From Patescibacteria group bacterium (GTDB lineage: Bacteria > Patescibacteriota > Minisyncoccia > Phycocordibacterales > PALSA-1337), in NCBI GenBank assembly GCA_018970245.1, contig JAGWWT010000002.1, positions 24,067 through 88,066 on the forward strand: 64,000 nucleotides of DNA, written 5' to 3'. The position numbers and the translations under genes are program-made. The notes beneath the pieces were generated by a model, which was given only the letters and a program-made list of their open reading frames with translations, had not been told where the DNA came from and did not search any database. This document shows positions 600-58,212 of the stretch, piece by piece. Positions within the stretch are counted from its first letter, which is position 1. Each line of letters starts with the position of its first letter.

Positions 600-1121
600 T
601 TATTTCGGCGGTTGGTATCCGAGCTCGTTCAGGTGATCGCTGATGTCTTGATATGACTTTCCGCAGAGCATGCCTCCGGCGAATGTCTCGTCATCGGTGA
701 CGTCAGCCAGACAGAAATCTGGCATGCCGAACGCTTTCATGTCCCTCACCGATTTGAATTCGACGTCCACAAGGACCAAGCCTTTTAACCCATCCTGGAA
801 TACGGCTACTTCCGCATTGGCTTCCTTATATGGATAATCGTACCTGATCTTCCTGACCTTTTTCCCTGCCGTCTTTGCCAATGAATCGAATTCTTCTTTG
901 GTAAGCCTTATCGTGTGCTCTGTCTGGATCGAAGCATCGCCCGACTGGTCAGGCTCCTTCTTCGTCATCTCGTATCTATCTCCATTCTTGCGGAGGCGCA
1001 AGACCGGATGAGCCGCAGAAGGCGGATAATAGGTATCGAAGACTTCCCTGTGCTGGCATTTTTCCAGGCCCTCCGGCAGGCGCCTTGCTAGGTATGTTTT
1101 TTCCAGCTCGAGTTCAATCAT
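600..1121 (-). CDS. CYTH-domain protein (triphosphate tunnel metalloenzyme / class IV adenylate cyclase-like)
   Basis: 173-aa ORF; N-terminal ELEKTYL (ExExK) motif and size match the CYTH family; 8-nt overlap with upstream amidase gene. Confidence 0.6.
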   Translation of the reverse strand: MIELELEKTYLARRLPEGLEKCQHREVFDTYYPPSAAHPVLRLRKNGDRYEMTKKEPDQSGDASIQTEHTIRLTKEEFDSLAKTAGKKVRKIRYDYPYKEANAEVAVFQDGLKGLVLVDVEFKSVRDMKAFGMPDFCLADVTDDETFAGGMLCGKSYQDISDHLNELGYQPPK

Positions 1122-1854
1122 CGCGCTTCATTCTAGCGTCTAAGAGCTTCTGTTTCCACACCGAAAGGAACAGCTTGCCTGGACAGGTCCTTTTCTCATT
1201 TACCTCGCAATGCCCAAATATATGCTCTGGCTTTATCTGGGGATAATGCTCGCGCAAGATCCTGGCAGCTGCCTCGATCTCAACAGCCGTCGGTTCCGAA
1301 TCTTCATAGTCGTCATCGAACGCTATCGCCACGCTCCGGCGATTGATTTCCCAATCGCCTGCGTGCCAACCGATCTCATCATCGTTCAAAAGCCGCTCGA
1401 CTTCCCCATTCTTGCGCACGAACCAATGATACGGCCAGAAGACTTGGCGCCTTTTGCCACCTTCTTCGCGGAAATGGCCGGAATATATAGGCGCGCCTTT
1501 GACTTCTCTGTCAGCGTCATACGTGGGTTTCGCATACTGCGGTGCATAAAGCCTGACAAGCTCGATGGCCGATAAGCGATCTTTGCTCATCCCAGGAGGA
1601 TTGCTCGTGTGATGGATCACCGCCATATCGATCGGCAAACGCTCCGCATCGAAATCCTTTCCATCAGCGCCGAGAGCGACCTCGCCAGCGGCCAGCTTCT
1701 CCTCGAAGAAAGCATAGATCCTATCTTTCGTCTCTTCATATGCGGCTCTATCGATGTCATGCAGCTTCGAGAGATCCGCCATGACAGCCGGCACTGCCAT
1801 ATACCAATGAGGGTCTCTTATCTTTTCGGACCATGTTTCAGGGTCGAAAATCAT
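1114..1854 (-). CDS. N-acetylmuramoyl-L-alanine amidase (amidase_2/PGRP fold)
   Basis: 246-aa ORF with HHTSN..., GWHAGD and IFGHCEV motifs (zinc ligands of the amidase_2 family). Confidence 0.7.
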   Translation of the reverse strand: MIFDPETWSEKIRDPHWYMAVPAVMADLSKLHDIDRAAYEETKDRIYAFFEEKLAAGEVALGADGKDFDAERLPIDMAVIHHTSNPPGMSKDRLSAIELVRLYAPQYAKPTYDADREVKGAPIYSGHFREEGGKRRQVFWPYHWFVRKNGEVERLLNDDEIGWHAGDWEINRRSVAIAFDDDYEDSEPTAVEIEAAARILREHYPQIKPEHIFGHCEVNEKRTCPGKLFLSVWKQKLLDARMKRDD

Positions 1855-1902
1855 ATATGGCTATCATATCAAAAATCGGAAACAAAAAACCCGCTCCCTC
1901 TT

Positions 1903-2526
1903 TCAGGGCTTGCGGGCGATGAGCCTAGCCGAGACGTTCTGCATCTGCGTGCCGTCAGGATGGCACTTCCTGGCACTAGTCGTCCCTTCGAAATACCATT
2001 CGATCTCCCATCCGCTGTAGAGCTGATCGAGCTCGCCTAGCTTCGGGTAGAAGAGCTCGGCGCTTGCGACCGGGTCTTTCCTGAAGAAGTCGCCTTCTGT
2101 CGTGAATGCAGCGATCACATTGAGCCCTCGCCTTTCAGTGGACCGCTTCATCTTCTCGATGAGCTCCAGACCCTGCGCCCGTCCTATGTGATGCATGACG
2201 TAAGCGCAGACGATGAGCCGGAATGGACGATCCCATTCGAACCCGAGGACGTCTGACTTCTTGATCCTTACGCTCACTCGCGCCGCTTTGGCTTCTTTCT
2301 GGAGCTTGCGGAGGCCGACCTCTGAGAAGTCGACGGCCGTCACATCGAATCCAGCTCTGGCCAGATAGATGGCATTCCTCCCTTCCCCGGCTCCGAGGTC
2401 GAGCGTCGAGCATGGGGCGATGAGCTCTGCGGCTCTGATCACAGCATCGCTTGGGCCTCCCTTGAATGTCGGGCCGGGCTGAGAATACAGTCTGTCGTAA
2501 TAGTCGATAAGAGCATTGTCTTTCAT
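1903..2526 (-). CDS. SAM-dependent methyltransferase (TehB-like)
   Basis: LDLGAGEGRNAIYLARAGFDVTAVDFS motif I; start placed at internal ATG (MKDNALIDYY), since the upstream 60 codons of the ORF look non-coding. Confidence 0.65.
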   Translation of the reverse strand: MKDNALIDYYDRLYSQPGPTFKGGPSDAVIRAAELIAPCSTLDLGAGEGRNAIYLARAGFDVTAVDFSEVGLRKLQKEAKAARVSVRIKKSDVLGFEWDRPFRLIVCAYVMHHIGRAQGLELIEKMKRSTERRGLNVIAAFTTEGDFFRKDPVASAELFYPKLGELDQLYSGWEIEWYFEGTTSARKCHPDGTQMQNVSARLIARKP

Positions 2527-2785
2527 GGTAACCACCTTCCGCGAGGATAGCACAATCGTGCGGGCGGTCAATCGCAGGCATATCCTGCCCTGCCTTGCTT
2601 CGCACATGGCAGTAGCCATGTCTCTCGCATATGCTCCATTTCGAAATCTTACCCTGACAAGATTTCGAAATAGGGGTATATTTACCGACACGTGATCCGG
2701 CTGACGATTCATGGCTATAGATCGTGGTCAGATCGAATTTTCGTTCTGTTTATTGCGAATCATTGCGAACTTAATCTCAACAAAA

Positions 2786-3079
2786 ATGCACGAAATCATG
2801 TCACAGCAAGATTCCGACAAAGCCGAATTCAAGAAGCATTCAAGTCCTCTGAAAAGAGGCCTTCTAGAATTCATCATTCTCAAAGCTATAGACGCCGAGT
2901 CGATGTACGCTGACCAACTTTGCAGATTCCTCGCCAAGACCGCTTTTTCATGCCCTCCTGGCACGCTTTATCCCCTTCTTCGGAAGCTCACGAAATCCGG
3001 CTATATAGTGCATCATTCCGACGACGCTCGCAAGATCAGCCATGCTCACATCCAAGCCATGAGAGACAGATATCAGTGA
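2786..3079 (+). CDS. PadR-family transcriptional regulator
   Basis: LLEFIILKAI...YPLLRKLTKSGYI winged-helix signature; start at internal ATG (MHEIMSQ); convergent with ABC-2 pair. Confidence 0.7.
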   Translation: MHEIMSQQDSDKAEFKKHSSPLKRGLLEFIILKAIDAESMYADQLCRFLAKTAFSCPPGTLYPLLRKLTKSGYIVHHSDDARKISHAHIQAMRDRYQ

Positions 3080-3081
3080 GC

Positions 3082-3846
3082 CTACGCCTTGATCCTCGAG
3101 AATAGCCATCCGCCAACGACCACGAATAGCGCCGCGATGCAGTAGACGACTACGAAATCGGTCCAGAGCGAATATGTAGACAAAAGAGCGAGAGCGCCGC
3201 GCAATCCGTCGACTCCGTATGACAGAGGATTGACATCCGCGATGTACTGGATCCAGATAGGCGCAGTCGTTAGCGGAAATAGCGCCCCAGAAAGGAAGAA
3301 CAACGGCATGTTGACTAGGTTGACTATGAGCCCGAAGCCCTGCATATCTTCCATCGTCGAGGCGATCGCCGTGCCGAAGGCTGTGAAGACCAGAGCGATC
3401 CCGAACATGAAGACCAGAGCCGGCAGGACGAGCGCGATATCCGGCCTGAAGCCGATCACGAACGTGATGATGAGGACGATCACGCCCTGCATGAATGCCG
3501 TTGTGGCGCCGCCAAGCGTGCGCCCGAACATGATGGCCACCCTCGACACCGGCGCGACGAGAGTCTCTTTTAAGAACCCGAACTGCCTGTCCCAGATGAG
3601 CTCTATGCCCGAGAAGACGGCCGTGAACATGATCGACATGGCGATGATGCCAGGCGCCAGGAATTGGATGTAGTTGCCGCCGCCGGCCTTTGAGAAGATC
3701 GGCCCGAAGCCGAAACCGAGCGCCACTAGGAATACGACCGGCTGCCCCAAGGACCCGATCATGCGCGATTTCGAACGGAAATAGCGCTTGATCTGGCGGA
3801 GCCAGAGGATGTACATGGCGTAGAATGTGTTGGATGTCTGGTTCAT
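3082..3846 (-). CDS. ABC-2 type exporter permease
   Basis: 254 aa, about 6 TM segments, ABC-2 permease topology; 14 nt downstream of the ATPase gene. Confidence 0.75.
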   Translation of the reverse strand: MNQTSNTFYAMYILWLRQIKRYFRSKSRMIGSLGQPVVFLVALGFGFGPIFSKAGGGNYIQFLAPGIIAMSIMFTAVFSGIELIWDRQFGFLKETLVAPVSRVAIMFGRTLGGATTAFMQGVIVLIITFVIGFRPDIALVLPALVFMFGIALVFTAFGTAIASTMEDMQGFGLIVNLVNMPLFFLSGALFPLTTAPIWIQYIADVNPLSYGVDGLRGALALLSTYSLWTDFVVVYCIAALFVVVGGWLFSRIKA

Positions 3847-5193: not shown

Positions 5194-5646
5194 ATGCCAA
5201 ATAACATACACAGGTTCAGCCCCCATATCCGCTTCCCCAACGGAAAATGCCGCGAAGGGATGGAATTCTATAAGAGCGTGTTCGGCGGAAAGCTAGACTT
5301 CATGACGGTCGGGCAAGCGCCGCAGGATGTGATCAAGAACATGCCTAATATCCCGAAAGATAACGTCATGCACGCCTCCCTCGACAGCGAAGGATTCAGC
5401 ATCCTGGGAGCAGACCAGATGCGCGATCCGGTAGTCAAAGGCGACCAGGTCACGATCATGGTCGAGCTCTCGAACCAGAAGGAGGTCGACGACAAGTTCG
5501 CCAAGCTATCTGTCGGCGGACAGGTCTTCATGAAGCCTGAGAAGATGTTCTGGGGCGGATACTACGGCTCCCTCACCGACAAGTACAGCGTCGAATGGGC
5601 GCTGCATTGCAGAAGCAAGGAGGAAGGAGTAAGGAGGAAGGAGTAA
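5194..5646 (+). CDS. VOC/glyoxalase-fold protein (PhnB-like)
   Basis: NGKCREGMEFYKSVFGG motif typical of PhnB-like VOC proteins; C-terminal tail created by a 14-nt tandem duplication. Confidence 0.55.
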   Translation: MPNNIHRFSPHIRFPNGKCREGMEFYKSVFGGKLDFMTVGQAPQDVIKNMPNIPKDNVMHASLDSEGFSILGADQMRDPVVKGDQVTIMVELSNQKEVDDKFAKLSVGGQVFMKPEKMFWGGYYGSLTDKYSVEWALHCRSKEEGVRRKE

Positions 5647-5707: not shown

Positions 5708-6397
5708 TCAAGCTTTTCCTGTCAGTTGTGCCCAATTCGTTTTTGGCCGAACTCGTACCGAACCGCTCTTGCAAAACGGACATTCTGCCGGATCCCAAAC
5801 CTTGATGTCGTAATGCGCGTATGGCACGATCCTCGTCTGTTCGATCTCGGTCACATCTGACCGATGGACGAGGACACCGGCCACTGGCGCGAATTTGATC
5901 GGGTACTCATGGAAGGCTCGGATGCCCTTGCGGACTTCTTGGAATGTGAGGGCCGTTGTCATGAGCTCTTCGACTTGGAGAACGACCTCGTTCTCCTCGA
6001 TCTTGAACCTCTTCCAAAGCTGACTCTTCCCTTCTCCTTTTTCAGTGAAGTCGTGATTGGCACCAAGCCAAACCGCCACGTTCTGCGAAAGGGTCGCGCC
6101 GGCGTGGTCGGAGCCGACGACCCAGTCTATCGGACCATCGTACGCACTGCGGATCGCGAGTGTCAATTCCCGCGCCAAGAGAAAACCGATGCGCGAGAAT
6201 CGAAGCAACCGCAATACGTCGGCAAAGCCGTCGCTGCACTTGCCCGATGTCAGCTCGGCATGCGGTGCTTGGGGCTGGCCCGAATGCAGCCAAAGCGCCT
6301 CTGCAGATTCGAGCATCTCTCGAAACTTATCGAGAGTGACAGAATCGACATGATAGAAGGCTGGCTCAAGACTACGCTGGAATTCCAAGAGGTTCAT
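5708..6397 (-). CDS. pyrE: type I phosphoribosyltransferase, orotate phosphoribosyltransferase-like
   Basis: PRPP-binding-like motif VVLQVEELMTTALT; 4-nt overlap (ATGA) with the upstream OMP decarboxylase gene. Confidence 0.5.
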   Translation of the reverse strand: MNLLEFQRSLEPAFYHVDSVTLDKFREMLESAEALWLHSGQPQAPHAELTSGKCSDGFADVLRLLRFSRIGFLLARELTLAIRSAYDGPIDWVVGSDHAGATLSQNVAVWLGANHDFTEKGEGKSQLWKRFKIEENEVVLQVEELMTTALTFQEVRKGIRAFHEYPIKFAPVAGVLVHRSDVTEIEQTRIVPYAHYDIKVWDPAECPFCKSGSVRVRPKTNWAQLTGKA

Positions 6398-7293
6398 ACT
6401 GTCACCTCCTCTAAGCAGGATTTAATGGCCTTATGTAACTTTAGTGTCTCTCTCCGCGCCGCTTCAGCGTAGTCTTCGCCAGAAGACGCGTACAGGATCG
6501 ACCGCGACGAGTTGATGATCATACCGCGGCCGCGGCTGTCCTTACCGGCTGCGACCGTCTTCTCGAGATCGCCGCCCTGAACGCCTATTCCCGGGATCAG
6601 GATCGGCAATTCGCCGACGATCTGTCGCACCCGAGCCAATTCGGCCGGATACGTAGCGCCAACTACCAATGCGCAGTTGCCATTCGCATTCCATTCATGT
6701 GCCACTTGAGCCGCGACTATTTCGTATAGCTTCGCGCTGACGATGCTGCCTGGTTCAGAGCCGACCGTTTGGACTCTGATGTCCTGGAACTCACCAGCGC
6801 CTTTGTTAGAGGTCCGGCAAAGGACGATGATGCCTTTTTCTTTGCGAGCCAGGAAAGGCTGGAGCGCTTGCTTTCCGAGATACGGATGGACAGTGATCGC
6901 GTCGGCGCCCAAGAGGTCGAAGGCCGATTTGATATAGCCCTTGTTGGTGTTGTCGATATCAGCGCGCTTGGCGTCCAGGATCACAGGTACATGCGGAGCT
7001 AGCTGATGCGCTGTGCCGATGACCTCTAAGAGCGCTTCTATGCCGCTATGACCTAATCCTTCAAAGAATGCGGAGTTCGGCTTATAGGCACAGACGAGGT
7101 CCTTGGTCGCCGCTATTATCGATTCGCAGAACTCGACTACTGTCGAAGGATCGGGTCTGTGGACAGGGAGCTCTGCTGATCTGCAGCGCTCCTTCAGGTG
7201 TTCGGGCATCCTGTCCATGTCCGGATCCAAACCGACGCAGACGAATTTGCCTTCGGCCCATCGGGCCTTGATCAGATCGTGGAAGTTTCTCAT
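6394..7293 (-). CDS. pyrF: orotidine 5'-phosphate decarboxylase (type 2)
   Basis: 299 aa; FVCVGLDPD, ILDAKRADIDNT and catalytic Lys region match long-form PyrF. Confidence 0.75.
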   Translation of the reverse strand: MRNFHDLIKARWAEGKFVCVGLDPDMDRMPEHLKERCRSAELPVHRPDPSTVVEFCESIIAATKDLVCAYKPNSAFFEGLGHSGIEALLEVIGTAHQLAPHVPVILDAKRADIDNTNKGYIKSAFDLLGADAITVHPYLGKQALQPFLARKEKGIIVLCRTSNKGAGEFQDIRVQTVGSEPGSIVSAKLYEIVAAQVAHEWNANGNCALVVGATYPAELARVRQIVGELPILIPGIGVQGGDLEKTVAAGKDSRGRGMIINSSRSILYASSGEDYAEAARRETLKLHKAIKSCLEEVTV

Positions 7294-51425: not shown

Positions 51426-52004
51426 TTGTTTGATGTGGGATCGTTTGATGCGGATAGTGGGCCCATTATATCAGGACTGGCTGAAACGCGTTATACTTTG
51501 CAGATGCGCGATTCCCCATTTGCGACCAATACAGCGGCGACGATATTCACGGCGATCGTCTATCAGCTATTCACAGCCCTGGATATCGGCAGCTCGATGA
51601 TGATTCTGAAGGAGAAAATGGCCTCCATGGAACATGCGGGAACTTCTCGGTTCGAACCGGTCATGGATTTCTTCAAAGACTGCAAACAAGCCGCGGTTTT
51701 AGCGAAAAGCGGCAAGCCGAAGGAATTACGCGAATTCTTCCAAAAAGTCGGTTCGAACCCGCTCGTCCTCGACCGCGCCCTGACCGCAACCGCCCGCGCC
51801 CCCTTCGCCCTGGTGAGAGCCCTTCCGGAAAACGCCAAGGGACATGCGGGCGGCGCGGCAGGAGGGGTCTGGGGAGGAATGCCGCGCCGCCCTCAATCAT
51901 GCGATGCGACTGCGTCTTTTTTGGGCGATTCCGAGTTTTTTGCGAAATTGCTGGAATTTTTGAATGATGTTCGAACTTTTTTCGCCGAGAATCCTCGCAC
52001 CTGA
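51426..52004 (+). CDS. hypothetical protein (start uncertain; strong RBS AAGGAG before internal ATG near 51618)
   Basis: only plausible frame in the region; internal repeats EFFQKVGSNP / EFLNDVRTFFAENP. Confidence 0.3.
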   Translation: MFDVGSFDADSGPIISGLAETRYTLQMRDSPFATNTAATIFTAIVYQLFTALDIGSSMMILKEKMASMEHAGTSRFEPVMDFFKDCKQAAVLAKSGKPKELREFFQKVGSNPLVLDRALTATARAPFALVRALPENAKGHAGGAAGGVWGGMPRRPQSCDATASFLGDSEFFAKLLEFLNDVRTFFAENPRT

Positions 52005-52184
52005 ATGGTTGCGCCTCGCATTCGCTCGGCGCTCGGATAGGGCGGACGGCGGCCTGGGGGTGTGGGGGGAGGTCGCCGTCCGCCCTTACTGCATTTTTGA
52101 CGCCTCCCTGGCGTTCGCGGGGGCGGTTCAAGATCAATCATAGCAAATCTCAATCGTCGCAGGAATCGCAAGGTTAAGTGACTC

Positions 52185-52268
52185 GAAGCGGCCCACTTCT
52201 TGAAGAAGTCGGCCGCTTCTCTATGGAGCTTGTGGCTCATTTCATAGATTTGAGCCACAACCGTTTTT
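52185..52268 (+). terminator. about 35-nt near-perfect palindrome followed by a second hairpin plus T5 (terminator)
   Basis: GAAGCGGCCCACTTCTTGAAGAAGTCGGCCGCTTC then TTGTGGCTCA-N11-TGAGCCACAA CCGTTTTTG. Confidence 0.55.
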
Positions 52269-52287
52269 GAGTGATCCACAGAGTTTT

Positions 52288-53055
52288 TCAGCGCACAAAG
52301 CGGTATTTTGCGTGTCTTGGAGATCCTTCGCGGACTAGACGTCCTTGCCTTACGAGATCGACGAGATATCTGGTCGCTGTGGCGTCAGATACCCTCGTGA
52401 GCTTCTGGACTTCATCGTTGGTGACGATTTGGTGTTGTTGGGCATGTTCGATAACTATTTCCAGTTTCTTTTGCCTGTGTTCTTGGATTTTCTGGCGTTC
52501 TTTGGTTCTGATTTCGTTCAGATGTTGCAGATCAGGGTTTGTTGCAGGAGTTTGTGATGTTGGCGCTGGATTGCTCGGCGCAGGCGCAGGCGTTGCCGGT
52601 GTTTGCGGTGATGGTTGGGTCGCTTGTGTCGGTGTTGGCGTCTCCGGTGTTGGAGCCTGTGGAGGTTGCGCCGGCGATTGCGGCTGTGGCGCTAGCGTAG
52701 TCTGTGCCGCCGGCGCAGACGCAGAAGATTCAGGAGCTTGTTGAGGAGATTCGGTCGGAGTTTCTGATTGAGCCGGCTCAGTTGGTGACGCGTCCGTGGT
52801 TTCAGGCGTTTGTGGTTCACCGCTGGTATCGTCGATCGGTTGAGGCTCGGATCCTGGCGCAGGTTCTGGCTCTTTCGGCGGTTCATCAGGAGCCGCCGGA
52901 CTCGGGTTCGGTTCTAGACTTGGCTGCGCAGGCGTTGATGGCTCTGGAGCAGGTCCGGCGGGCACGGCAGATGCCGGAGCTGGCGCGAGCGTAGAGGTAT
53001 CTATATTTTGGTCCTTGTTTTCTTCCATATTTTGCTTGTAATTCCAACGGCTCAT
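52288..53055 (-). CDS. Pro-rich low-complexity protein with C-terminal winged HTH
   Basis: N-terminal about 170 aa P/A/T/E/Q-rich; C-terminal IVTNDEVQKLTRVSDATATRYLVDLVRQGRLVREG wHTH; likely true start is the internal ATG 27 nt downstream (MEENKDQ). Confidence 0.5.
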   Translation of the reverse strand: MSRWNYKQNMEENKDQNIDTSTLAPAPASAVPAGPAPEPSTPAQPSLEPNPSPAAPDEPPKEPEPAPGSEPQPIDDTSGEPQTPETTDASPTEPAQSETPTESPQQAPESSASAPAAQTTLAPQPQSPAQPPQAPTPETPTPTQATQPSPQTPATPAPAPSNPAPTSQTPATNPDLQHLNEIRTKERQKIQEHRQKKLEIVIEHAQQHQIVTNDEVQKLTRVSDATATRYLVDLVRQGRLVREGSPRHAKYRFVR

Positions 53056-53078
53056 CGGCGTTGAGCCGTTAAAACCCT
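53044..53078 (-). promoter_or_regulatory. conserved palindromic element, copy 1 (AACGGCTCA-N7-TGAGCCGTT)
   Basis: about 35-nt block shared with 58874-58908; overlaps the annotated start of 52288..53055. Confidence 0.55.
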
Positions 53079-53296
53079 TGTATTTTTTAGTGGAATGCGA
53101 TTAACTGTCAGCCTCTATTATACTGAACATTATGCCTCTGCAAAATACCTTGATCATTCAATGCCCCTACATTATTCTACGAATATGAACAGGCCGTTTA
53201 ATGCAATCTGCTGAGCCACAGACCATTGACAATTGACTGATTATCATTTATATTATTTTCAGTGCTCGTTAACAACAGAATAGGAGAAATCACAAA

Positions 53297-53842
53297 ATGA
53301 AAACAAAGGACAGACAGGCTTTCAACGCCTTGAATGGGAAAGGCTCGGAGCGCGCTGATCGTTTGCATCGATTTCTCATGGAATCGGGCTTTGATTTCGC
53401 GACGGGTGTGCCGTGCGGAGTGTTGAAACATATCATAGCCAATTTGGTTGGCGATAAACGGGTATGTCATGTGCCCGCCAATCGCGAATCGGAAGCTATA
53501 GGACTTGCTGCCGGAGCATATCTGGCCGGTAAGAAACCGCTGGTGTATATGCAGAATTCGGGATTATTCGCAGCGTCTAACGACATCGCTTCATTGCTAG
53601 TGCCGTATGGAATACCGGCGTTAATGCTGATATCTTACCGCGGTTGCGAAGGAGAAGACGCCGTTCAACATCTGACTACCGGCCATGCGACGGAAAATCT
53701 GATCCGATCATTCAATCTGCCATATGAAGTGTTTGACGGCCGGAAACGCGACATAAACGCCTGCGTTTCCGTCTTGATCGGTCTGATGACCGAAAGAGAG
53801 CTTCCGGCGATACTTCTGCTGAAGAGAGGATGGTATGTATGA
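53297..53842 (+). CDS. TPP-dependent sulfopyruvate/phosphonopyruvate decarboxylase-like, alpha subunit (ComD-like)
   Basis: 181 aa; TPP-enzyme N-terminal (pyrimidine-binding) domain pattern GFDFATGVPCGVL...ANRESEAIGLAAGAYLAGKKP. Confidence 0.7.
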   Translation: MKTKDRQAFNALNGKGSERADRLHRFLMESGFDFATGVPCGVLKHIIANLVGDKRVCHVPANRESEAIGLAAGAYLAGKKPLVYMQNSGLFAASNDIASLLVPYGIPALMLISYRGCEGEDAVQHLTTGHATENLIRSFNLPYEVFDGRKRDINACVSVLIGLMTERELPAILLLKRGWYV

Positions 53843-54411
53843 AAAGAGCCGACGTCATTGAGATCGTAGCGACTTCAACACAATGCGACGACGTCATCGT
53901 TGCGACTACCGGGTTGATATCCAGAGAACTATTCGAAAGATTCGACTCCGAGAGGAACGTGTATATACCGGGTTCAATGGGATTGGTTTCATCCGTGGGA
54001 TTAGGCATAGCCTTGTGTGACACAAATCACAGGGTGGTGATAATAGACGGAGATGCTAGCCTACTCATGAACTTGGGTTCAATGGTAACTATTGGATCAA
54101 GGAGACCGAAAAATCTCCTCCATATAGTGTTGGACAACGGCGCATACGCGTCGTGCAGCGAGGAATCATCCATGTCCGGAACGGCAAACTTCGGATTATT
54201 GGCTAAAGATGTAGGCTACAAATATACCGCTACCGTTGGCGACAGAGAAGCATTAAAACGTGCTATACTGTCGTTCAAGGGCGGCCCGGGATTCTTGTCT
54301 GCCATAACGGAACTTGGAGGACGGCGAGATTTTCGCCGGCCGCAAAAGCTCAAAGAGATCAAAAGACGGTTCATGAGATTCATGAGCCGGCAACCAAAAG
54401 GAAAAATATGA
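53830..54411 (+). CDS. TPP-dependent sulfopyruvate/phosphonopyruvate decarboxylase-like, beta subunit (ComE-like)
   Basis: TPP-binding motif GSMGLVSSVGLGIAL...IDGDASLLMNLGSMVT...LDNGAY; 13-nt overlap with alpha gene. Confidence 0.7.
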   Translation: MVCMKRADVIEIVATSTQCDDVIVATTGLISRELFERFDSERNVYIPGSMGLVSSVGLGIALCDTNHRVVIIDGDASLLMNLGSMVTIGSRRPKNLLHIVLDNGAYASCSEESSMSGTANFGLLAKDVGYKYTATVGDREALKRAILSFKGGPGFLSAITELGGRRDFRRPQKLKEIKRRFMRFMSRQPKGKI

Positions 54412-55250
54412 TGTTTCAAGGAAAAAAAGTATTCAACGCATCGTTCGACGCCTATGCCGACGATTATCACGAAGTCCGGCCGGGATATCCCGACCAGATG
54501 TTCAACGATATCAAGGCTCAATGCGGCATAACCGGTGACTCTAAGCTCCTGGAGATAGGGGCCGGCAGCGGCATAGCCACGAAAAAGCTGGCCGAGTTCG
54601 GTTGCAAGATAACCGCGCTCGAGCCAGGATCGAATCTGGCACGCATCGCCAGAAAACACACCTCCAAACTGCAAAATGTGGAGATAATCGAGGACACATT
54701 CGAATCCTTTCAACCGAAAGGAAAATTCGACACCGTCTTGGCGTTCACGGCGTTTCATTGGGTTCCCGGAAACGACAAATACGGAAGAGCTATGGAACTG
54801 CTCAATGATTCCGGGAGCTTGGTGATAGTATGGAACAGCTTTCTACAGGATCATTCCGCCGTGACCGCCGAAGTCAACGAGGCCTACGACAGATTGTTGC
54901 CGACGGTCTACGGTAAGATCGGGGACTCTTCGGAAATCAACAAGAGGGTCTTGGCCAAGCTGACTTCAAGGGAAAGGGAAATATTTCTCAACGATCGCCT
55001 GTATCCGGTATTCTTGCGGAAATACACCGCCAGATACAACTACGACGACAAGACCTATCCTCAACTGCTCAATACGTTCCCGAAGATAGTCGGAACCGAG
55101 GATTCCGTGCGCAGCTCGTTTCTCCGAGAAGTGTCAGGGATCATCAAGCGCCACGAGATGATCACGGTACCGGTCCTCACGACAGTCGTGATCTGCAGAC
55201 GCAGAGAGTCATTCTTGCGAATGACCGTAAATGAAGACAGAGAGGAGTAA
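54408..55250 (+). CDS. class I SAM-dependent methyltransferase
   Basis: motif I LLEIGAGSGIATKKLAEFGCKITALEP; 4-nt overlap upstream. Confidence 0.7.
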   Translation: MMFQGKKVFNASFDAYADDYHEVRPGYPDQMFNDIKAQCGITGDSKLLEIGAGSGIATKKLAEFGCKITALEPGSNLARIARKHTSKLQNVEIIEDTFESFQPKGKFDTVLAFTAFHWVPGNDKYGRAMELLNDSGSLVIVWNSFLQDHSAVTAEVNEAYDRLLPTVYGKIGDSSEINKRVLAKLTSREREIFLNDRLYPVFLRKYTARYNYDDKTYPQLLNTFPKIVGTEDSVRSSFLREVSGIIKRHEMITVPVLTTVVICRRRESFLRMTVNEDREE

Positions 55251-55252
55251 GT

Positions 55253-56344
55253 ATGATAGACACAGAAAGGCTATTGCAGCTTTCGCGGCAATACAGAACG
55301 CCGCTGGAAGATACGATGTTTATATCGCTCAACATGAGCGGTGTGAGCTTCAAATGCGATTACAACAGGATGCGGACAGCCGTAAGGCTGGAAAATCATG
55401 AGCTGTTCGGATATGCGGAGGAACGAAATGAACTTGAATATTATTTCGCCCTGCCGATAAACGACTCTAGCCCGTTCCGGATATCCGGCGACGTTCTGTC
55501 GTTAGGAGACACGGCGATAGGCTCCACCGTCGGAGCGACGGAAGATATCTGCGATTCGCACTATCCGAGAAGGCGAGGCACTTCGCTGAATCTTAACCCC
55601 AATTCTCGGACATCTTGCCGCGGTTGCGAATTCTGCTACACCGCGTATCAAGTGCCGTGCGACAGGAAAAAACTGAGGGATCGCCGAGATCTCGAGGAAT
55701 TTTTCGAGGGGTGGATGAAAGGACGATGCTTATCGGATCTGTCCGGTCTCATCCAAGTATCAGTCGTGACAGGATGTTACGACGGCGGCAAGGAAGTATG
55801 CCGTTTCATCTTGGAACTAAGGAGCGTATTGAGCCGATACGGATTCAACGGTTCGATATTCTATCTTGGTTCTCAGTTGACGACGGAAGACGAATTGAGC
55901 CGCTTGGAAGCGGCCAAGCCAGTCAGTGTATGTTATTCGCTGGAGACGTTCGAGAGACGCGAGTTGTTGCGAGATAAAAAGCGCTTACTCAGCCTTAATA
56001 GAGCCGTTGAGCTCATGGATTTCTCCAGGGAGTCAGGATACGAGACCAGCTTTTCCTATGTCATTGGCTTGGAGCCTTTGCACATAGTGGGCAAGCACTT
56101 CTCTTATCTGAAAGATCACATCAACAAATTCCCCATCATCAACACTCTGCAGATACACAAATATCACAGAGCCGAATTGGCCGATCCGAGCGTTGACGGA
56201 CCGGAATATTACTTGAGAGCGAGACGGCTTCTTGAGCAGATATTCTCGGATACGCCCATGAGGCCGCTGGTTTGGGAGAATTATCGCAGCTTATGGTTTC
56301 TGACCTTCAACAACGAACCGCTATATGGTTGGAGAACGCCTTAG
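55253..56344 (+). CDS. radical-SAM-like protein with non-canonical CX2CX2C cluster motif
   Basis: SRTSCRGCEFCYTAY (Cys triad with aromatic before the third Cys) about 120 aa from the N-terminus; 363 aa. Confidence 0.4.
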   Translation: MIDTERLLQLSRQYRTPLEDTMFISLNMSGVSFKCDYNRMRTAVRLENHELFGYAEERNELEYYFALPINDSSPFRISGDVLSLGDTAIGSTVGATEDICDSHYPRRRGTSLNLNPNSRTSCRGCEFCYTAYQVPCDRKKLRDRRDLEEFFEGWMKGRCLSDLSGLIQVSVVTGCYDGGKEVCRFILELRSVLSRYGFNGSIFYLGSQLTTEDELSRLEAAKPVSVCYSLETFERRELLRDKKRLLSLNRAVELMDFSRESGYETSFSYVIGLEPLHIVGKHFSYLKDHINKFPIINTLQIHKYHRAELADPSVDGPEYYLRARRLLEQIFSDTPMRPLVWENYRSLWFLTFNNEPLYGWRTP

Positions 56345-56409: not shown

Positions 56410-56871
56410 CTAAACATCTATCTCCTCGCCATCCGGAAATATTTCTGATATTTTTTCAGACGTTTCGCGCAATTGTCCGTCGAACAGCAGGTAATTCCCC
56501 AATTGCGTAAATGGCACCCATGCGTACGACCTCACTTCGCCTTTCTTCGGTCTGACATCGTATGTACCGACCAAGCGAAACCCGAAAAAGTATCTTTCCG
56601 AACCGTCGTATTTTTTGCCGTCGCGATTCATTGTGATCACCTTGAATCTGAAACGCACGGGTACATGACTCCGTCCGACTAACTCGAGGGAACTTTTTTC
56701 TATGCCGAGTTCCTCGCGCACTTCTCGATACACGGCATCTTCCAATGTTTCTCCCTGCTCGACTCCGCCGCCCGGAACGGCGAAATACTTATTTTCAAAA
56801 GACTCCAGATTGACAAGGAGAAATTCCTTATTACTGTTCATTATGAGAGCTGATACGCCTTTTCTGTACAT
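56410..56871 (-). CDS. NUDIX hydrolase
   Basis: Nudix box GGGVEQGETLEDAVYREVREELGI. Confidence 0.8.
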   Translation of the reverse strand: MYRKGVSALIMNSNKEFLLVNLESFENKYFAVPGGGVEQGETLEDAVYREVREELGIEKSSLELVGRSHVPVRFRFKVITMNRDGKKYDGSERYFFGFRLVGTYDVRPKKGEVRSYAWVPFTQLGNYLLFDGQLRETSEKISEIFPDGEEIDV

Positions 56872-56901
56872 GGCGATAGTATAACAAAGTAGTAATTACA
56901 G

Positions 56902-57654
56902 TTATATTCTCCTCCTCAACACCGTAATGTTCCGCCCGCCTGGATAAGGTTTCTTGGCCGCATCGAAATCGCTGAAGTCGGAGACGTGTTCCCATTTACT
57001 GGTAGCCTCCGCTTTGGCGATAAAATCATTGATTCTATATAATTTCCTTGTCTCGGTATGTTCTATCACTTTTTTCTCGCCGTTCTCCTCTATCTCCAGT
57101 ATTATCCTTGCGTCAGATAACCCATTTCGCTCATCTATCCATTTAGGATCATAAGTGGTGATCACCTTTACACCGTCTCGCTCCATCTCCCATGTCTGGA
57201 TTCCGAAATCTTCCGGAAAGAAAAGTACGGCTCCGTCCAGAAAGTACAGACCTCCGCCCCTTACAGAGTGTGCCACCGAATCCATATGGCTCTGCAATTC
57301 ATGGTCATCAGTCACATAGAACGAGCCCAGGAAAAGCAAAGCGCAGTCGGCTTGTTTATTCGTGCGGAAGTTTCTTAAATCTCCTCGGATGATTTCGGCC
57401 TTGAGTCCCAAATCTTCTATAGTCTTTGTTGAATATTCGATCATCTCCTCATTCTGTTCCAAACCGACATAGTCGTAGCCTCGCCGGCACAACTCGCTCA
57501 TGTGCGGACTATTACCGGACGCTATCTCCAAGACTGTCTTTACCGGTATCAGCGATTCATTCTTTATGATTTGCTCGAGGAAATCTACTTCCTTCGCGAT
57601 ATCTCGGAATGAAAAAGCTATATCGTAATATTTTGGATTATCGTAGACATCCAT
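56902..57654 (-). CDS. class I SAM-dependent methyltransferase (TylM1/small-molecule N- or O-MTase-like)
   Basis: YYDIAF...VLEIASGNSPH motif I, acidic motif II. Confidence 0.7.
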   Translation of the reverse strand: MDVYDNPKYYDIAFSFRDIAKEVDFLEQIIKNESLIPVKTVLEIASGNSPHMSELCRRGYDYVGLEQNEEMIEYSTKTIEDLGLKAEIIRGDLRNFRTNKQADCALLFLGSFYVTDDHELQSHMDSVAHSVRGGGLYFLDGAVLFFPEDFGIQTWEMERDGVKVITTYDPKWIDERNGLSDARIILEIEENGEKKVIEHTETRKLYRINDFIAKAEATSKWEHVSDFSDFDAAKKPYPGGRNITVLRRRI

Positions 57655-57675
57655 AGGGTCGTAATATTTACAGCT

Positions 57676-58203
57676 CTATACTAAATACTCTCTAATTTCC
57701 TCAAAATCCTCGTATGAGTGATCGTCGCCTTTGCACACAATAAGATCCAGTGACCCAAATTTTCCCTCAGCTTGCTCTCTCCTTATATCTTCCGCCGAAG
57801 CCACGGGATCATGATCATTCTGAATGAGCGTCGTCGGCACGGAATAATCAGATGACCAAGCATCAATATCAAAACGGTTCTTCCTAGCCCATTCCGGAGG
57901 CAAACCTAGAAATACGCACCTGCCTATGCGTTCCGCCGCAATCGTTTTCGAATGAATGGAAAGCATGAACAATACGGTACCTATGGACTTGGCAAGAATA
58001 GCAATATCTCCACTGAAAGATCTCGCCGTATTTGTCAATTTCTTCAGTTCAATCTCCATATCTATCAACTCGCCGCCACTTGCCCAGTGGTCATAATATT
58101 GGACGGAAATTGATTTGAAATCGTCGGCAAAATAATCGCGCGCTTTTTCCGCCCATTCCTTATTTGACGCGCCGTTGCCTGGAATGATCATGAGGTTGCT
58201 CAT
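57676..58203 (-). CDS. alpha/beta-hydrolase (YdeN/RBBP9-like serine hydrolase)
   Basis: 175 aa; IIPGNGAS start and AKSIG nucleophile-elbow-like motif. Confidence 0.55.
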   Translation of the reverse strand: MSNLMIIPGNGASNKEWAEKARDYFADDFKSISVQYYDHWASGGELIDMEIELKKLTNTARSFSGDIAILAKSIGTVLFMLSIHSKTIAAERIGRCVFLGLPPEWARKNRFDIDAWSSDYSVPTTLIQNDHDPVASAEDIRREQAEGKFGSLDLIVCKGDDHSYEDFEEIREYLV

Positions 58204-58212
58204 AATTTCGTG

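Follow-up and report, generated by a model that had tools for sequence, protein, structure and literature searches.

A hairpin family of Patescibacteria beside winged-helix genes and at the boundaries of gene cassettes

The DNA analysed here, called the window, is a stretch of 64,000 nucleotides (nt) from a Patescibacteria group bacterium (contig JAGWWT010000002.1, positions 24,067 to 88,066; coordinates below are those of the window). The Patescibacteria, or candidate phyla radiation (CPR), make up a large, mostly uncultivated share of bacterial diversity and have tiny genomes, and to our knowledge almost nothing is known of their regulatory DNA or gene exchange. Two copies of a palindrome lie in the window beside two paralogous genes for winged-helix-turn-helix (wHTH) proteins, and the question raised by this locus is what the palindrome does there. 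The original prediction, made from the sequence alone, proposed an operator for a dimeric transcription factor, by which the wHTH genes would be autoregulated, or alternatively an RNA hairpin in a 5' untranslated region (UTR). The palindrome was found to belong to a previously undescribed hairpin family of Patescibacteria, which we name E; the window copies are E1, E2 and the diverged E3. The explanation that we favour, and to which we give about an even chance, is that E is the cis partner of the wHTH protein family and marks the 3' boundary of [genes … wHTH]-E cassettes that are joined at E. Compared loci are labelled with L-numbers and proteins of the wHTH family with P-numbers.

Hairpin family E

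E1 occupies positions 53044-53078 on the minus strand, with the palindrome at 53046-53070 (AACGGCTCA ACGCCGA TGAGCCGTT on that strand), and E2 occupies 58874-58908, also on the minus strand, with the palindrome at 58876-58900 (AATGGCTCA ACATAGA TGAGCCGTT). The minus-strand readings are GGGTTTTAACGGCTCAACGCCGATGAGCCGTTG at 53078-53045 and GGGGTTTTAATGGCTCAACATAGATGAGCCGTTG at 58908-58875. The pattern AAYGGCTCA-N7-TGAGCCRTT matched the 64 kb at these two palindromes only, against 0.11 matches expected, and none of 100 shuffles equalled this number. The family covariance model, run over the whole window with its filters off, returned the E1 and E2 sites only, and the 9-mers AACGGCTCA and TGAGCCGTT had no further occurrence in the window beyond both elements. 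The two copies thus lie where the original prediction had placed them and nowhere else in the 64 kb. Their description had to be changed: the repeated unit is 55 nt long and not 35 nt, and the inverted repeat, described as perfect, fails at E2, where AAT stands opposite GTT on the minus strand, which makes a G-U pair in RNA and a mismatch in DNA. The stem of E1 is lengthened by GGGUUUU/GGAAUU; its RNA fold has an energy of -22.4 kcal/mol (z = -3.7), and it scores 41 bits (E = 2e-12) against the family covariance model R1. The score of E2 is 28.6-31.4 bits.

Further copies with the same 9-bp arms were found in many Patescibacteria genomes and metagenome contigs. A scan of one genome per species, 596 Gb in all, with the single exact pattern TTTTAAYGGCTCA-N7-TGAGCCRTT gave 18 loci, all 18 of them in metagenome-assembled genomes of Patescibacteria (Saccharibacteria, Parcubacteria/Paceibacterota, Minisyncoccia, Staskawicz- and Spechtbacteria), where the calculated chance expectation was about 0.3. 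Metagenomes, scanned with a single exact but shorter pattern, gave at least 120 loci, some of which are chance matches inside the genes of other organisms. Six matches on viral contigs were rejected as family members: they look like chance or coding matches, and three of them are homologous coding sequences. An E copy that seemed to be present in only one of L145 and L147 was also rejected as a polymorphism, since the difference was really an assembly gap of Ns.

The invariant part of E is the pair of 9-bp arms, AACGGCTCA/TGAGCCGTT, often extended to 11 bp (…AAC/GTT…). The apical part is variable, and the basal extension is variable in sequence yet base-paired. Loops of 4, 6, 7, 8, 12, 14, 15 and 21 nt were seen between perfect arms. 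The 9-mer is seldom single, since its 28 occurrences outside N7 palindromes in 862 kb are nearly all inverted pairs with another loop length. Among 128 distinct elements, 29% have a Watson-Crick extension of at least 3 bp outside the core, against 1.6% expected, and two positions inside the arms are paired in 58%. In an alignment of 142 sequences the covariation score was 0.263, compared with 0.115 +/- 0.007 for shuffles (0 of 500 equal) and at most 0.108 for slid partners; the sole degenerate core pair was C-G in 109 sequences, U-A in 24 and another combination, either unpaired or changed on one side only, in 9. A doubly compensated variant of the core, AACACCTCA…TGAGGTGTT, was found in L159. 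Because the loop ranges from 4 to 21 nt and pairs outside and inside the core covary, E is a hairpin and not the dimeric operator of fixed 9-7-9 geometry that had been predicted.

The strand and the nucleic acid in which the hairpin acts are less narrowly defined. The stem sequence is identical on both strands, and the excess of G-U over A-C pairs that was sought on the sense strand was not significant (17 versus 12, p = 0.46); therefore RNA, single-stranded DNA and cruciform forms are all possible. At gathering score, the only Rfam matches in the window and in 11 loci were tRNAs, and around the elements nothing relevant came up at the E-value threshold either. No description of the element was found in the searchable literature. 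By crude open reading frame (ORF) calls, E copies lie a median of about 30 nt past the stop of the upstream gene, in 64 tandem, 10 convergent and 10 divergent intergenic regions, a distribution near background and not informative.

The diverged copy E3 (about 52230-52260, minus strand) reads TTGTGGCTCA-N11-TGAGCCACAA. It retains the GGCTCA/TGAGCC core, its outer 3 bp are altered with compensation, and its loop is 11 nt long; the orthologous element in L014 carries a compensated change from C-G to G-C (GTGGGTCAA…TTGACCCAC). E3 is one of two adjacent, very stable hairpins at 52170-52290 on the minus strand (-53.6 kcal/mol, z = -8.1). The other, GAAGCGGCCGACUUCUUCAAGAAGUGGGCCGCUUC, is conserved in L014 and has no U-tract. 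Around this pair, some 850 nt (51426-52280) hold no convincing gene. Overlapping ORFs on both strands give low-complexity translations; there are 17-nt inverted repeats at 52039-52086, and the segment 51957-52200, in which Rfam has no match, is conserved at 73-80% in L014, L019 and L022.

The wHTH genes and their linkage to E

The gene that precedes E2 (58908-59291, minus strand; ORF open to 59321) codes for a protein of 127 amino acids (NCBI KGI50_05740, here P0001, 100% identity), called TM-wHTH below. Its N-terminal helices are hydrophobic and are joined by a basic linker to a C-terminal winged helix, which is highly conserved with the consensus LTNxxVExMLGISxATATRYFDELEKEGKxRQVGKTGxxVxYEK. 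In the AlphaFold2 (AF2) model, helices span residues 6-22 and 25-45, and the wHTH domain spans residues 85-126 with a predicted local distance difference test score (pLDDT) above 90. It is probably a membrane-anchored DNA-binding protein. E2 begins 8 nt past the TM-wHTH stop and ends 18 nt ahead of the ATG (58857) of a histidine-phosphatase gene. The second gene, the Pro-rich wHTH paralogue (52288-53028, minus strand), codes for 246 amino acids from the ATG at 53028 and matches the family hidden Markov model (HMM) with E = 1.7e-9; it has a long N-terminal region rich in Pro, Glu and Thr, followed by a wHTH of the same type. E3 lies 32 nt past its stop. The proposal that translation of this gene really starts at the downstream ATG is supported by its orthologues in L014, L019 and L022, which begin MDE(T/E)..., equivalent to MEENKDQ. 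The palindrome of E1 is 17 nt from the ATG at 53028, and that of E2 is 18 nt from the next one, rather than the 27-28 nt given originally. The similar codons noticed downstream of both elements turned out to be coincidence: the orthologous site of L014 reads ATGGACGAAACC, and the sequences downstream of E1 and E2 are unrelated.

The family to which these proteins belong is large. Its clusters at 50% identity have 3,046 representatives at E <= 1e-3, of which 1,711 also pass E <= 1e-10, and all named members are from Patescibacteria. No Pfam or NCBIfam model reaches its cut-off on TM-wHTH, and we found neither an entry in these databases nor a description in the searchable literature for its family. 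Profile searches of the PDB, and Foldseek with the AF2 model, found generic DNA-binding wHTH folds only (Hop2, MarR, ArsR, Fur, eS25); the window wHTH is also weakly similar to the wHTH domains of Csa3, CasR and SoFic. In exact-sequence look-ups neither the histidine phosphatase nor the TM-wHTH of the window was on record. The TM-wHTH/Pro-rich gene pair is kept in L014, L019, L022 and L145. Some proteins have 7-11 tandem copies of the wHTH domain, for example P0095 (818 aa), P0101 (581 aa) and P0152 (537 aa), for which arrays of E might be binding sites, the triple copy at 3951-4058 of L141 among them.

Linkage between gene family and hairpin was assessed at loci picked by the E sequence (element-first) and at loci picked by the wHTH protein alone (protein-first). 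The family HMM, applied to 4,067 crudely called ORFs of the element-first loci, recovered 13 small TM-wHTH genes, and all 13 have E after the stop. In 12 of them E lies 3-69 nt past the stop, and in L128 it overlaps the called end of the ORF. Pro-rich paralogues at these loci stand directly behind E. At the protein-first loci of eight diverse homologues (P0064, P0045, P0044, P0091, P0051, P0013, P0093 and P0069) an E with perfect arms was found 8-170 nt past the stop in seven cases and a compensated variant 21 nt past the stop in the eighth; the loops there measure 6, 8, 14, 15 and 21 nt. The distance from stop to E is 3-15 nt in most wHTH cases. Controls were negative: 31 kb of non-redundant CPR DNA without wHTH genes, fetched by means of a radical S-adenosylmethionine (SAM) gene of the window described below, contained no E even with 3 mismatches allowed, and the covariance model found none in the remaining 58 kb or so of the window. 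With an E/TM-wHTH module defined as arms forming a stem within about 170 nt past the stop of a family wHTH gene, E2 of the window is such a module.

The suspected tie to the neighbouring wHTH genes therefore holds, as the element is specifically linked to that gene family. Its conserved place is just 3' of the TM-wHTH stop, and the distance to the next start is not conserved, which gives little support to the autoregulatory position upstream of a gene that had been suggested. The other suggestion, a hairpin in a 5' UTR, is compatible with E1. A promoter-like site, TTTGCA-16-TATAAT, recognised by its consensus alone, is present on the minus strand (53144-53117), and if the site is used it would put E1 within the 5' UTR of the Pro-rich wHTH gene. 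A strand asymmetry that would prove a function at the RNA level was not found.

Cassette boundaries and the insertion in the window

Clusters of restriction-modification or defence-like genes end with the wHTH gene in the window and in the protein-first loci L145, L148, L150, L152, L154, L156 and L159. The genes ahead of it are of different kinds: AAA_15/AAA_21 in L145, type ISP or MmeI-like in L148 and L154, a Dam methylase with ResIII/RE_endonuc in L150, Tsp45I with a methylase and an SMC-like ATPase in L152, and an EcoRI-type methylase with GmrSD/HNH in L156 and L159. In the window the genes upstream of TM-wHTH (59469-63658, minus strand) are a helicase like that of type III restriction endonucleases (REase; 61313-63658, minus strand; ResIII 5e-20, PADLOC REase_III 1.7e-23) and three ORFs without assigned function. 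A second E stands at the upstream edge of the cluster, 21-77 nt past the stop of the preceding gene, in L145, L148, L152, L154 and L159. The two copies of one locus can be related to each other: those of L154 are identical 26-nt direct repeats, the 15-nt loops of L148 are reverse-complementary with one mismatch, and the same compensated core variant occurs at both cassette ends of L159. Neighbouring E copies with shared loops were also found in L024, L048, L052 and L093. Whole cassettes are similar in different surroundings, those of L148 and L154 being 79-86% identical in nucleotide sequence with unrelated flanks, and those of L156 and L159 70-75% identical in unrelated contexts.

One cassette gain can be followed in the window itself. 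In L014, L019 and L022, whose wHTH proteins are 82-91% identical to those of the window, the TM-wHTH gene is followed directly by one E and the Pro-rich wHTH gene, and a 55-nt site is present in a single copy. The window has this site twice, as direct repeats (family D1) that are 82% identical. The left-hand copy (58875-58929, minus strand) consists of E2 and the last TM-wHTH codons (…HVFYEKI*), and the right-hand copy (53045-53099, minus strand) of E1 and 29 nt of non-coding sequence, a remnant similar to the 3' terminus of wHTH genes; a longer wHTH pseudogene was sought upstream of E1 and nothing was found past these approximately 29 nt. By BLAST, window positions 52934-53099 and 58875-59306 map to one stretch of L022 and overlap there by exactly the 55-nt site. 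Since the two flanks are contiguous in the sister genomes and overlap at the site, the segment 53100-58874 (5,775 nt, absent from the sisters) is an insertion bracketed by the duplicated site. It separated the Pro-rich gene from its partner TM-wHTH gene.

The two copies have kept different parts of the ancestral site. E1 retains the ancestral palindrome and loop, identical to those of the single site of L022, with a foreign, diverged flank on the gene side; E2 retains the ancestral gene end, with a foreign loop and downstream flank. Judged from these sequences, this pattern is as would be expected if one reciprocal crossover had fallen on the palindrome's left edge. The partners would have been the chromosomal site and incoming DNA with its own '[wHTH 3' end]-E', and the crossover would have put the 5.8-kb cassette between TM-wHTH and the Pro-rich paralogue and duplicated the site.

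The inserted genes are on the plus strand at 53297-56344 (a split pair like phosphonopyruvate or sulfopyruvate decarboxylase, a methyltransferase and a radical SAM protein) and on the minus strand at 56410-58857 (a Nudix protein, a methyltransferase, an ORF of 175 aa and the histidine phosphatase). The split thiamine pyrophosphate (TPP) enzyme is nearest to phosphonopyruvate/sulfopyruvate decarboxylase, below curated cut-offs, and the radical SAM protein, for which 199 homologues were collected, has no family assignment. By these annotations the insert looks like a small biosynthetic or modification cluster, and its cargo appears metabolic and not defensive. Its core of four genes (TPP alpha, TPP beta, methyltransferase, radical SAM) is found again in the Patescibacteria loci L162 and L163, and no E flanks the cargo operon elsewhere, as none is contained in L161-L163. 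From about 52 kb to the end of the window the G+C content drops from about 56-58% to 42-52%. The stretch of lower G+C takes in the wHTH/E units and the type III REase-like cluster and fits horizontally acquired DNA.

Genes for large serine recombinases were seen at L154 (12247-13962), a few kb from the wHTH cassette, and at L162 (1311-2933), which lacks E; they show no consistent association with E.

Explanations, known systems and minor observations

The explanation we favour joins hairpin, protein and cassette. One winged-helix domain would read the duplex of the 9-bp arm. As linear DNA and a folded hairpin present this duplex with one and the same sequence, such reading would explain why the arm sequence and its pairing are conserved and the loop length is free. 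Binding of the wHTH protein would mark the 3' boundary of the unit, and new cassettes would be acquired at the shared hairpin through E x E recombination. The [genes … wHTH]-E units behave as cassettes, usually with restriction-modification or other defence cargo and with E at their boundaries. E may serve as a boundary, insulator or termination element, and may promote recombination actively rather than being a mere patch of shared sequence. With a spacing of 3-15 nt between stop and hairpin, a terminating ribosome would reach the 5' arm, so the wHTH gene or the following one may be affected in its expression. A bolder version, which we consider unlikely, is that E and TM-wHTH form a cassette-exchange system throughout the Patescibacteria, distinct from integrons in mechanism and analogous in function. 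Its multi-gene cassettes, defensive or metabolic, would end in a hallmark gene for a DNA-binding protein and a hairpin of invariant sequence. The protein would recognise this hairpin as a duplex or in folded form, perhaps on single-stranded DNA that enters at the membrane of these naturally competent cells, and would steer cassette capture at any chromosomal E without a recombinase encoded by the cassette.

A number of observations weigh against these proposals. About 85-90% of the elements found by sequence have diverse housekeeping neighbours and no wHTH gene nearby, and a Pfam census of 150 ORFs adjoining element-first copies showed no recurrent family and no recombinase. Because most copies lack a wHTH neighbour, the relation is one-sided: each gene of the family has an E, and the converse is not true. 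The sequence and fold of the protein show only a generic wHTH domain. The recognition helix varies (EATAT, ESTVT, DATAE) and E is constant, and co-variation of protein and site was seen in a single variant pair (L159 with P0069), too little for a conclusion. The N-terminal membrane anchor is predicted solely from hydrophobicity and the AF2 helices. At the cassette level, L156 has no E at its upstream boundary, and the repeat copies of the window share only 82% identity. An old exchange, homologous or illegitimate, accounts for the duplication in the window as well as an active site-specific mechanism does.

The strongest of the other explanations, though we think it unlikely, is that E is only an RNA hairpin at 3' ends, a terminator or an mRNA stabiliser of the REP type, and that the wHTH link reflects hitch-hiking and not binding. 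Long and stable stems, the median position about 30 nt past the upstream stop (3-15 nt in most wHTH cases) and the G-U pair of E2 in the sense strand are all in line with it, as are the A-run and T-run flanks of some copies (e.g. L116, L141, L148), which resemble bidirectional terminators. However, a T-rich tail on either strand was found in only 31 of 126 metagenome copies. E1 and E2 have no U-tract, being followed by GGAAUUACAAGC and GAUCCGAACAAA, respectively, and the terminator scan reported neither. Many wHTH genes possess a separate, ordinary terminator-like hairpin before or after E, and a sense-strand excess of G-U pairs is missing. A plain terminator would also leave unexplained the invariant stem of 9-11 bp from Saccharibacteria to Paceibacterota, the 21/21 linkage to one gene family and the absence of E from the control CPR loci.

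That E is the attachment site of a dedicated recombination system, integron-like or similar to Xer/dif modules, with a recombinase encoded elsewhere and the wHTH protein as an accessory or directionality factor, we regard as quite unlikely. This explanation would account for the bracketing of cassettes by E, for the identical or reverse-complementary loops in L154, L148, L024, L052 and L048, for the same compensated variant at both ends of L159 and for an insertion that is precise relative to the empty sites; AAC…GTT at the outer arm ends also recalls the sole conserved bases of attC. Yet no integrase or recombinase recurs near E, the serine recombinases being kilobases away (L154) or at a locus without E (L162). 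A loop of 4-21 nt is incompatible with a fixed crossover region of 6-8 bp, the extrahelical bases and unpaired spacer of the attC type are missing, and the loops of E1 and E2 differ.

An improbable alternative is the one proposed originally, a double-stranded operator at which a wHTH dimer represses the downstream gene or autoregulates its own. The element is palindromic and adjoins wHTH genes, E1 lies between the promoter-like site and the start of the Pro-rich wHTH gene, and wHTH domains of the MarR, ArsR and Csa3 types commonly bind palindromes as dimers. Against this, half-sites are spaced by 4-21 nt, covarying flanks are superfluous for a duplex site, the conserved position is 3' of the regulator gene and often between convergent or before unrelated genes, and in L145 an E lies within an ORF. 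Finally, it is hardly credible that E is a DNA uptake signal of competent Patescibacteria in the form of inverted pairs: Patescibacteria are naturally transformable, and the 9-nt core in inverted pairs 3' of genes resembles the DNA uptake sequence (DUS) pairs that Neisseria has downstream of its genes, but the 9-mer practically never occurs singly and its density is too low, with 2 copies in 64 kb and none in 31 kb of control DNA.

Comparison with known systems led to a similar picture, as E fails a defining feature of each of them among the features tested. The repetitive extragenic palindromes of Proteobacteria (REP, BIME) with their RAYT proteins (TnpA-REP) are alike in being short palindromes outside genes, conserved in the stem and variable in the loop, just past stops, dispersed in variable copy number and flanking a dedicated small protein gene. 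The partner here is instead a wHTH protein of about 100 amino acids with a hydrophobic N-terminus and no HUH/Y1 catalytic domain, and no Y1/HUH (RAYT) transposase was found among the 150 neighbouring ORFs or in the protein-first gene tables. E also has no GTAG/CGTC tag, its flanks being variable; REPs number hundreds of copies per genome, whereas the window has 2 canonical ones, and the REP stem is conserved within a species, that of E across a phylum-level radiation. Integron attC sites likewise are folded palindromes at the 3' ends of cassettes, with outer AAC…GTT, varied cargo and arrays of [genes]-site units. In contrast to attC (57-141 nt, R''-L''/L'-R' boxes), E measures 25-45 nt and is perfectly paired, with neither extrahelical bases nor a central spacer; its cassettes are multi-gene, have their own promoters and end in the hallmark wHTH gene, and no IntI or other tyrosine recombinase was found among the window genes examined or near E elsewhere. 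Xer-dependent dif modules and integrative mobile elements exploiting Xer (IMEX) also are accessory-gene modules bracketed by short, partly palindromic sites with no recombinase inside, but the Xer layout is 11-6/8-11 with a fixed centre, and E has a centre of 4-21 nt with flanks that pair as a stem.

Regulators of defence islands (wHTH-WYL proteins BrxR and CapW, the controller or C proteins of restriction-modification systems, Csa3) share with E the combination of a small HTH or wHTH gene and a palindrome on diverse defence operons. They differ in standing at the 5' end and binding their own promoters, whereas the wHTH gene here is the last one, with the site past its stop, and its product has a hydrophobic N-terminus and no sensor domain. 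In ParB-parS, Noc-NBS and RacA-ram a gene adjoins its own palindrome, further copies are scattered, and the DNA-binding protein can be membrane-associated (Noc); however, the folds are unrelated, the sites are contiguous without a variable loop or a covarying stem, and no partition ATPase is linked to E. DUS and uptake signal sequences (USS) are single motifs strongly over-represented genome-wide, including inside genes, unlike the E 9-mer with its nearly exclusive occurrence in inverted pairs. E is best described as a palindromic repeat that is dispersed, has a dedicated partner gene and behaves as a cassette boundary.

For the Patescibacteria these results add a sequence-defined, searchable cis element conserved across classes, a candidate partner protein family of more than 1,700 clusters at 50% identity that is currently without annotation, and a recurrent cassette layout around restriction-modification and other defence genes, for which one insertion is documented. 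Should the protein indeed bind E, the pair could be used to annotate the limits of cassettes and defence islands in CPR metagenomes; a domain of about 70 residues with a 30-nt oligonucleotide would be a simple biochemical system, and the few Saccharibacteria that can be cultivated might gain a landing pad for genetic tools.

Some copies of E occur in unusual settings. In L145 one copy (5458-5481) is inside the Pro/Glu-rich coding region of the wHTH paralogue, where it is translated as TAQPVEPL, and the two wHTH genes overlap (ATGA) at this place. Downstream of this wHTH pair, 1.1 kb without a called gene (5981-7085) is G+C-rich and highly structured, includes another copy of E (6272-6301) and stops close to a tRNA-like sequence; either a large non-coding RNA or a decayed gene may lie here. 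A canonical E with the loop ACGACGT was found at 1098-1122 of L020, a Paceibacterota genome, about 200 nt into an SMC-like ORF (900-3167), so that either the gene start was mis-called or this is another copy inside an ORF. In the Saccharibacteria contig L024, two E copies with N7 and N4 loops and 19 nt between them form a composite at 1931-1996, which recurs as a direct repeat 4.5 kb away at 6438-6503. The two composites bracket six small genes, none of which is a member of the wHTH family.

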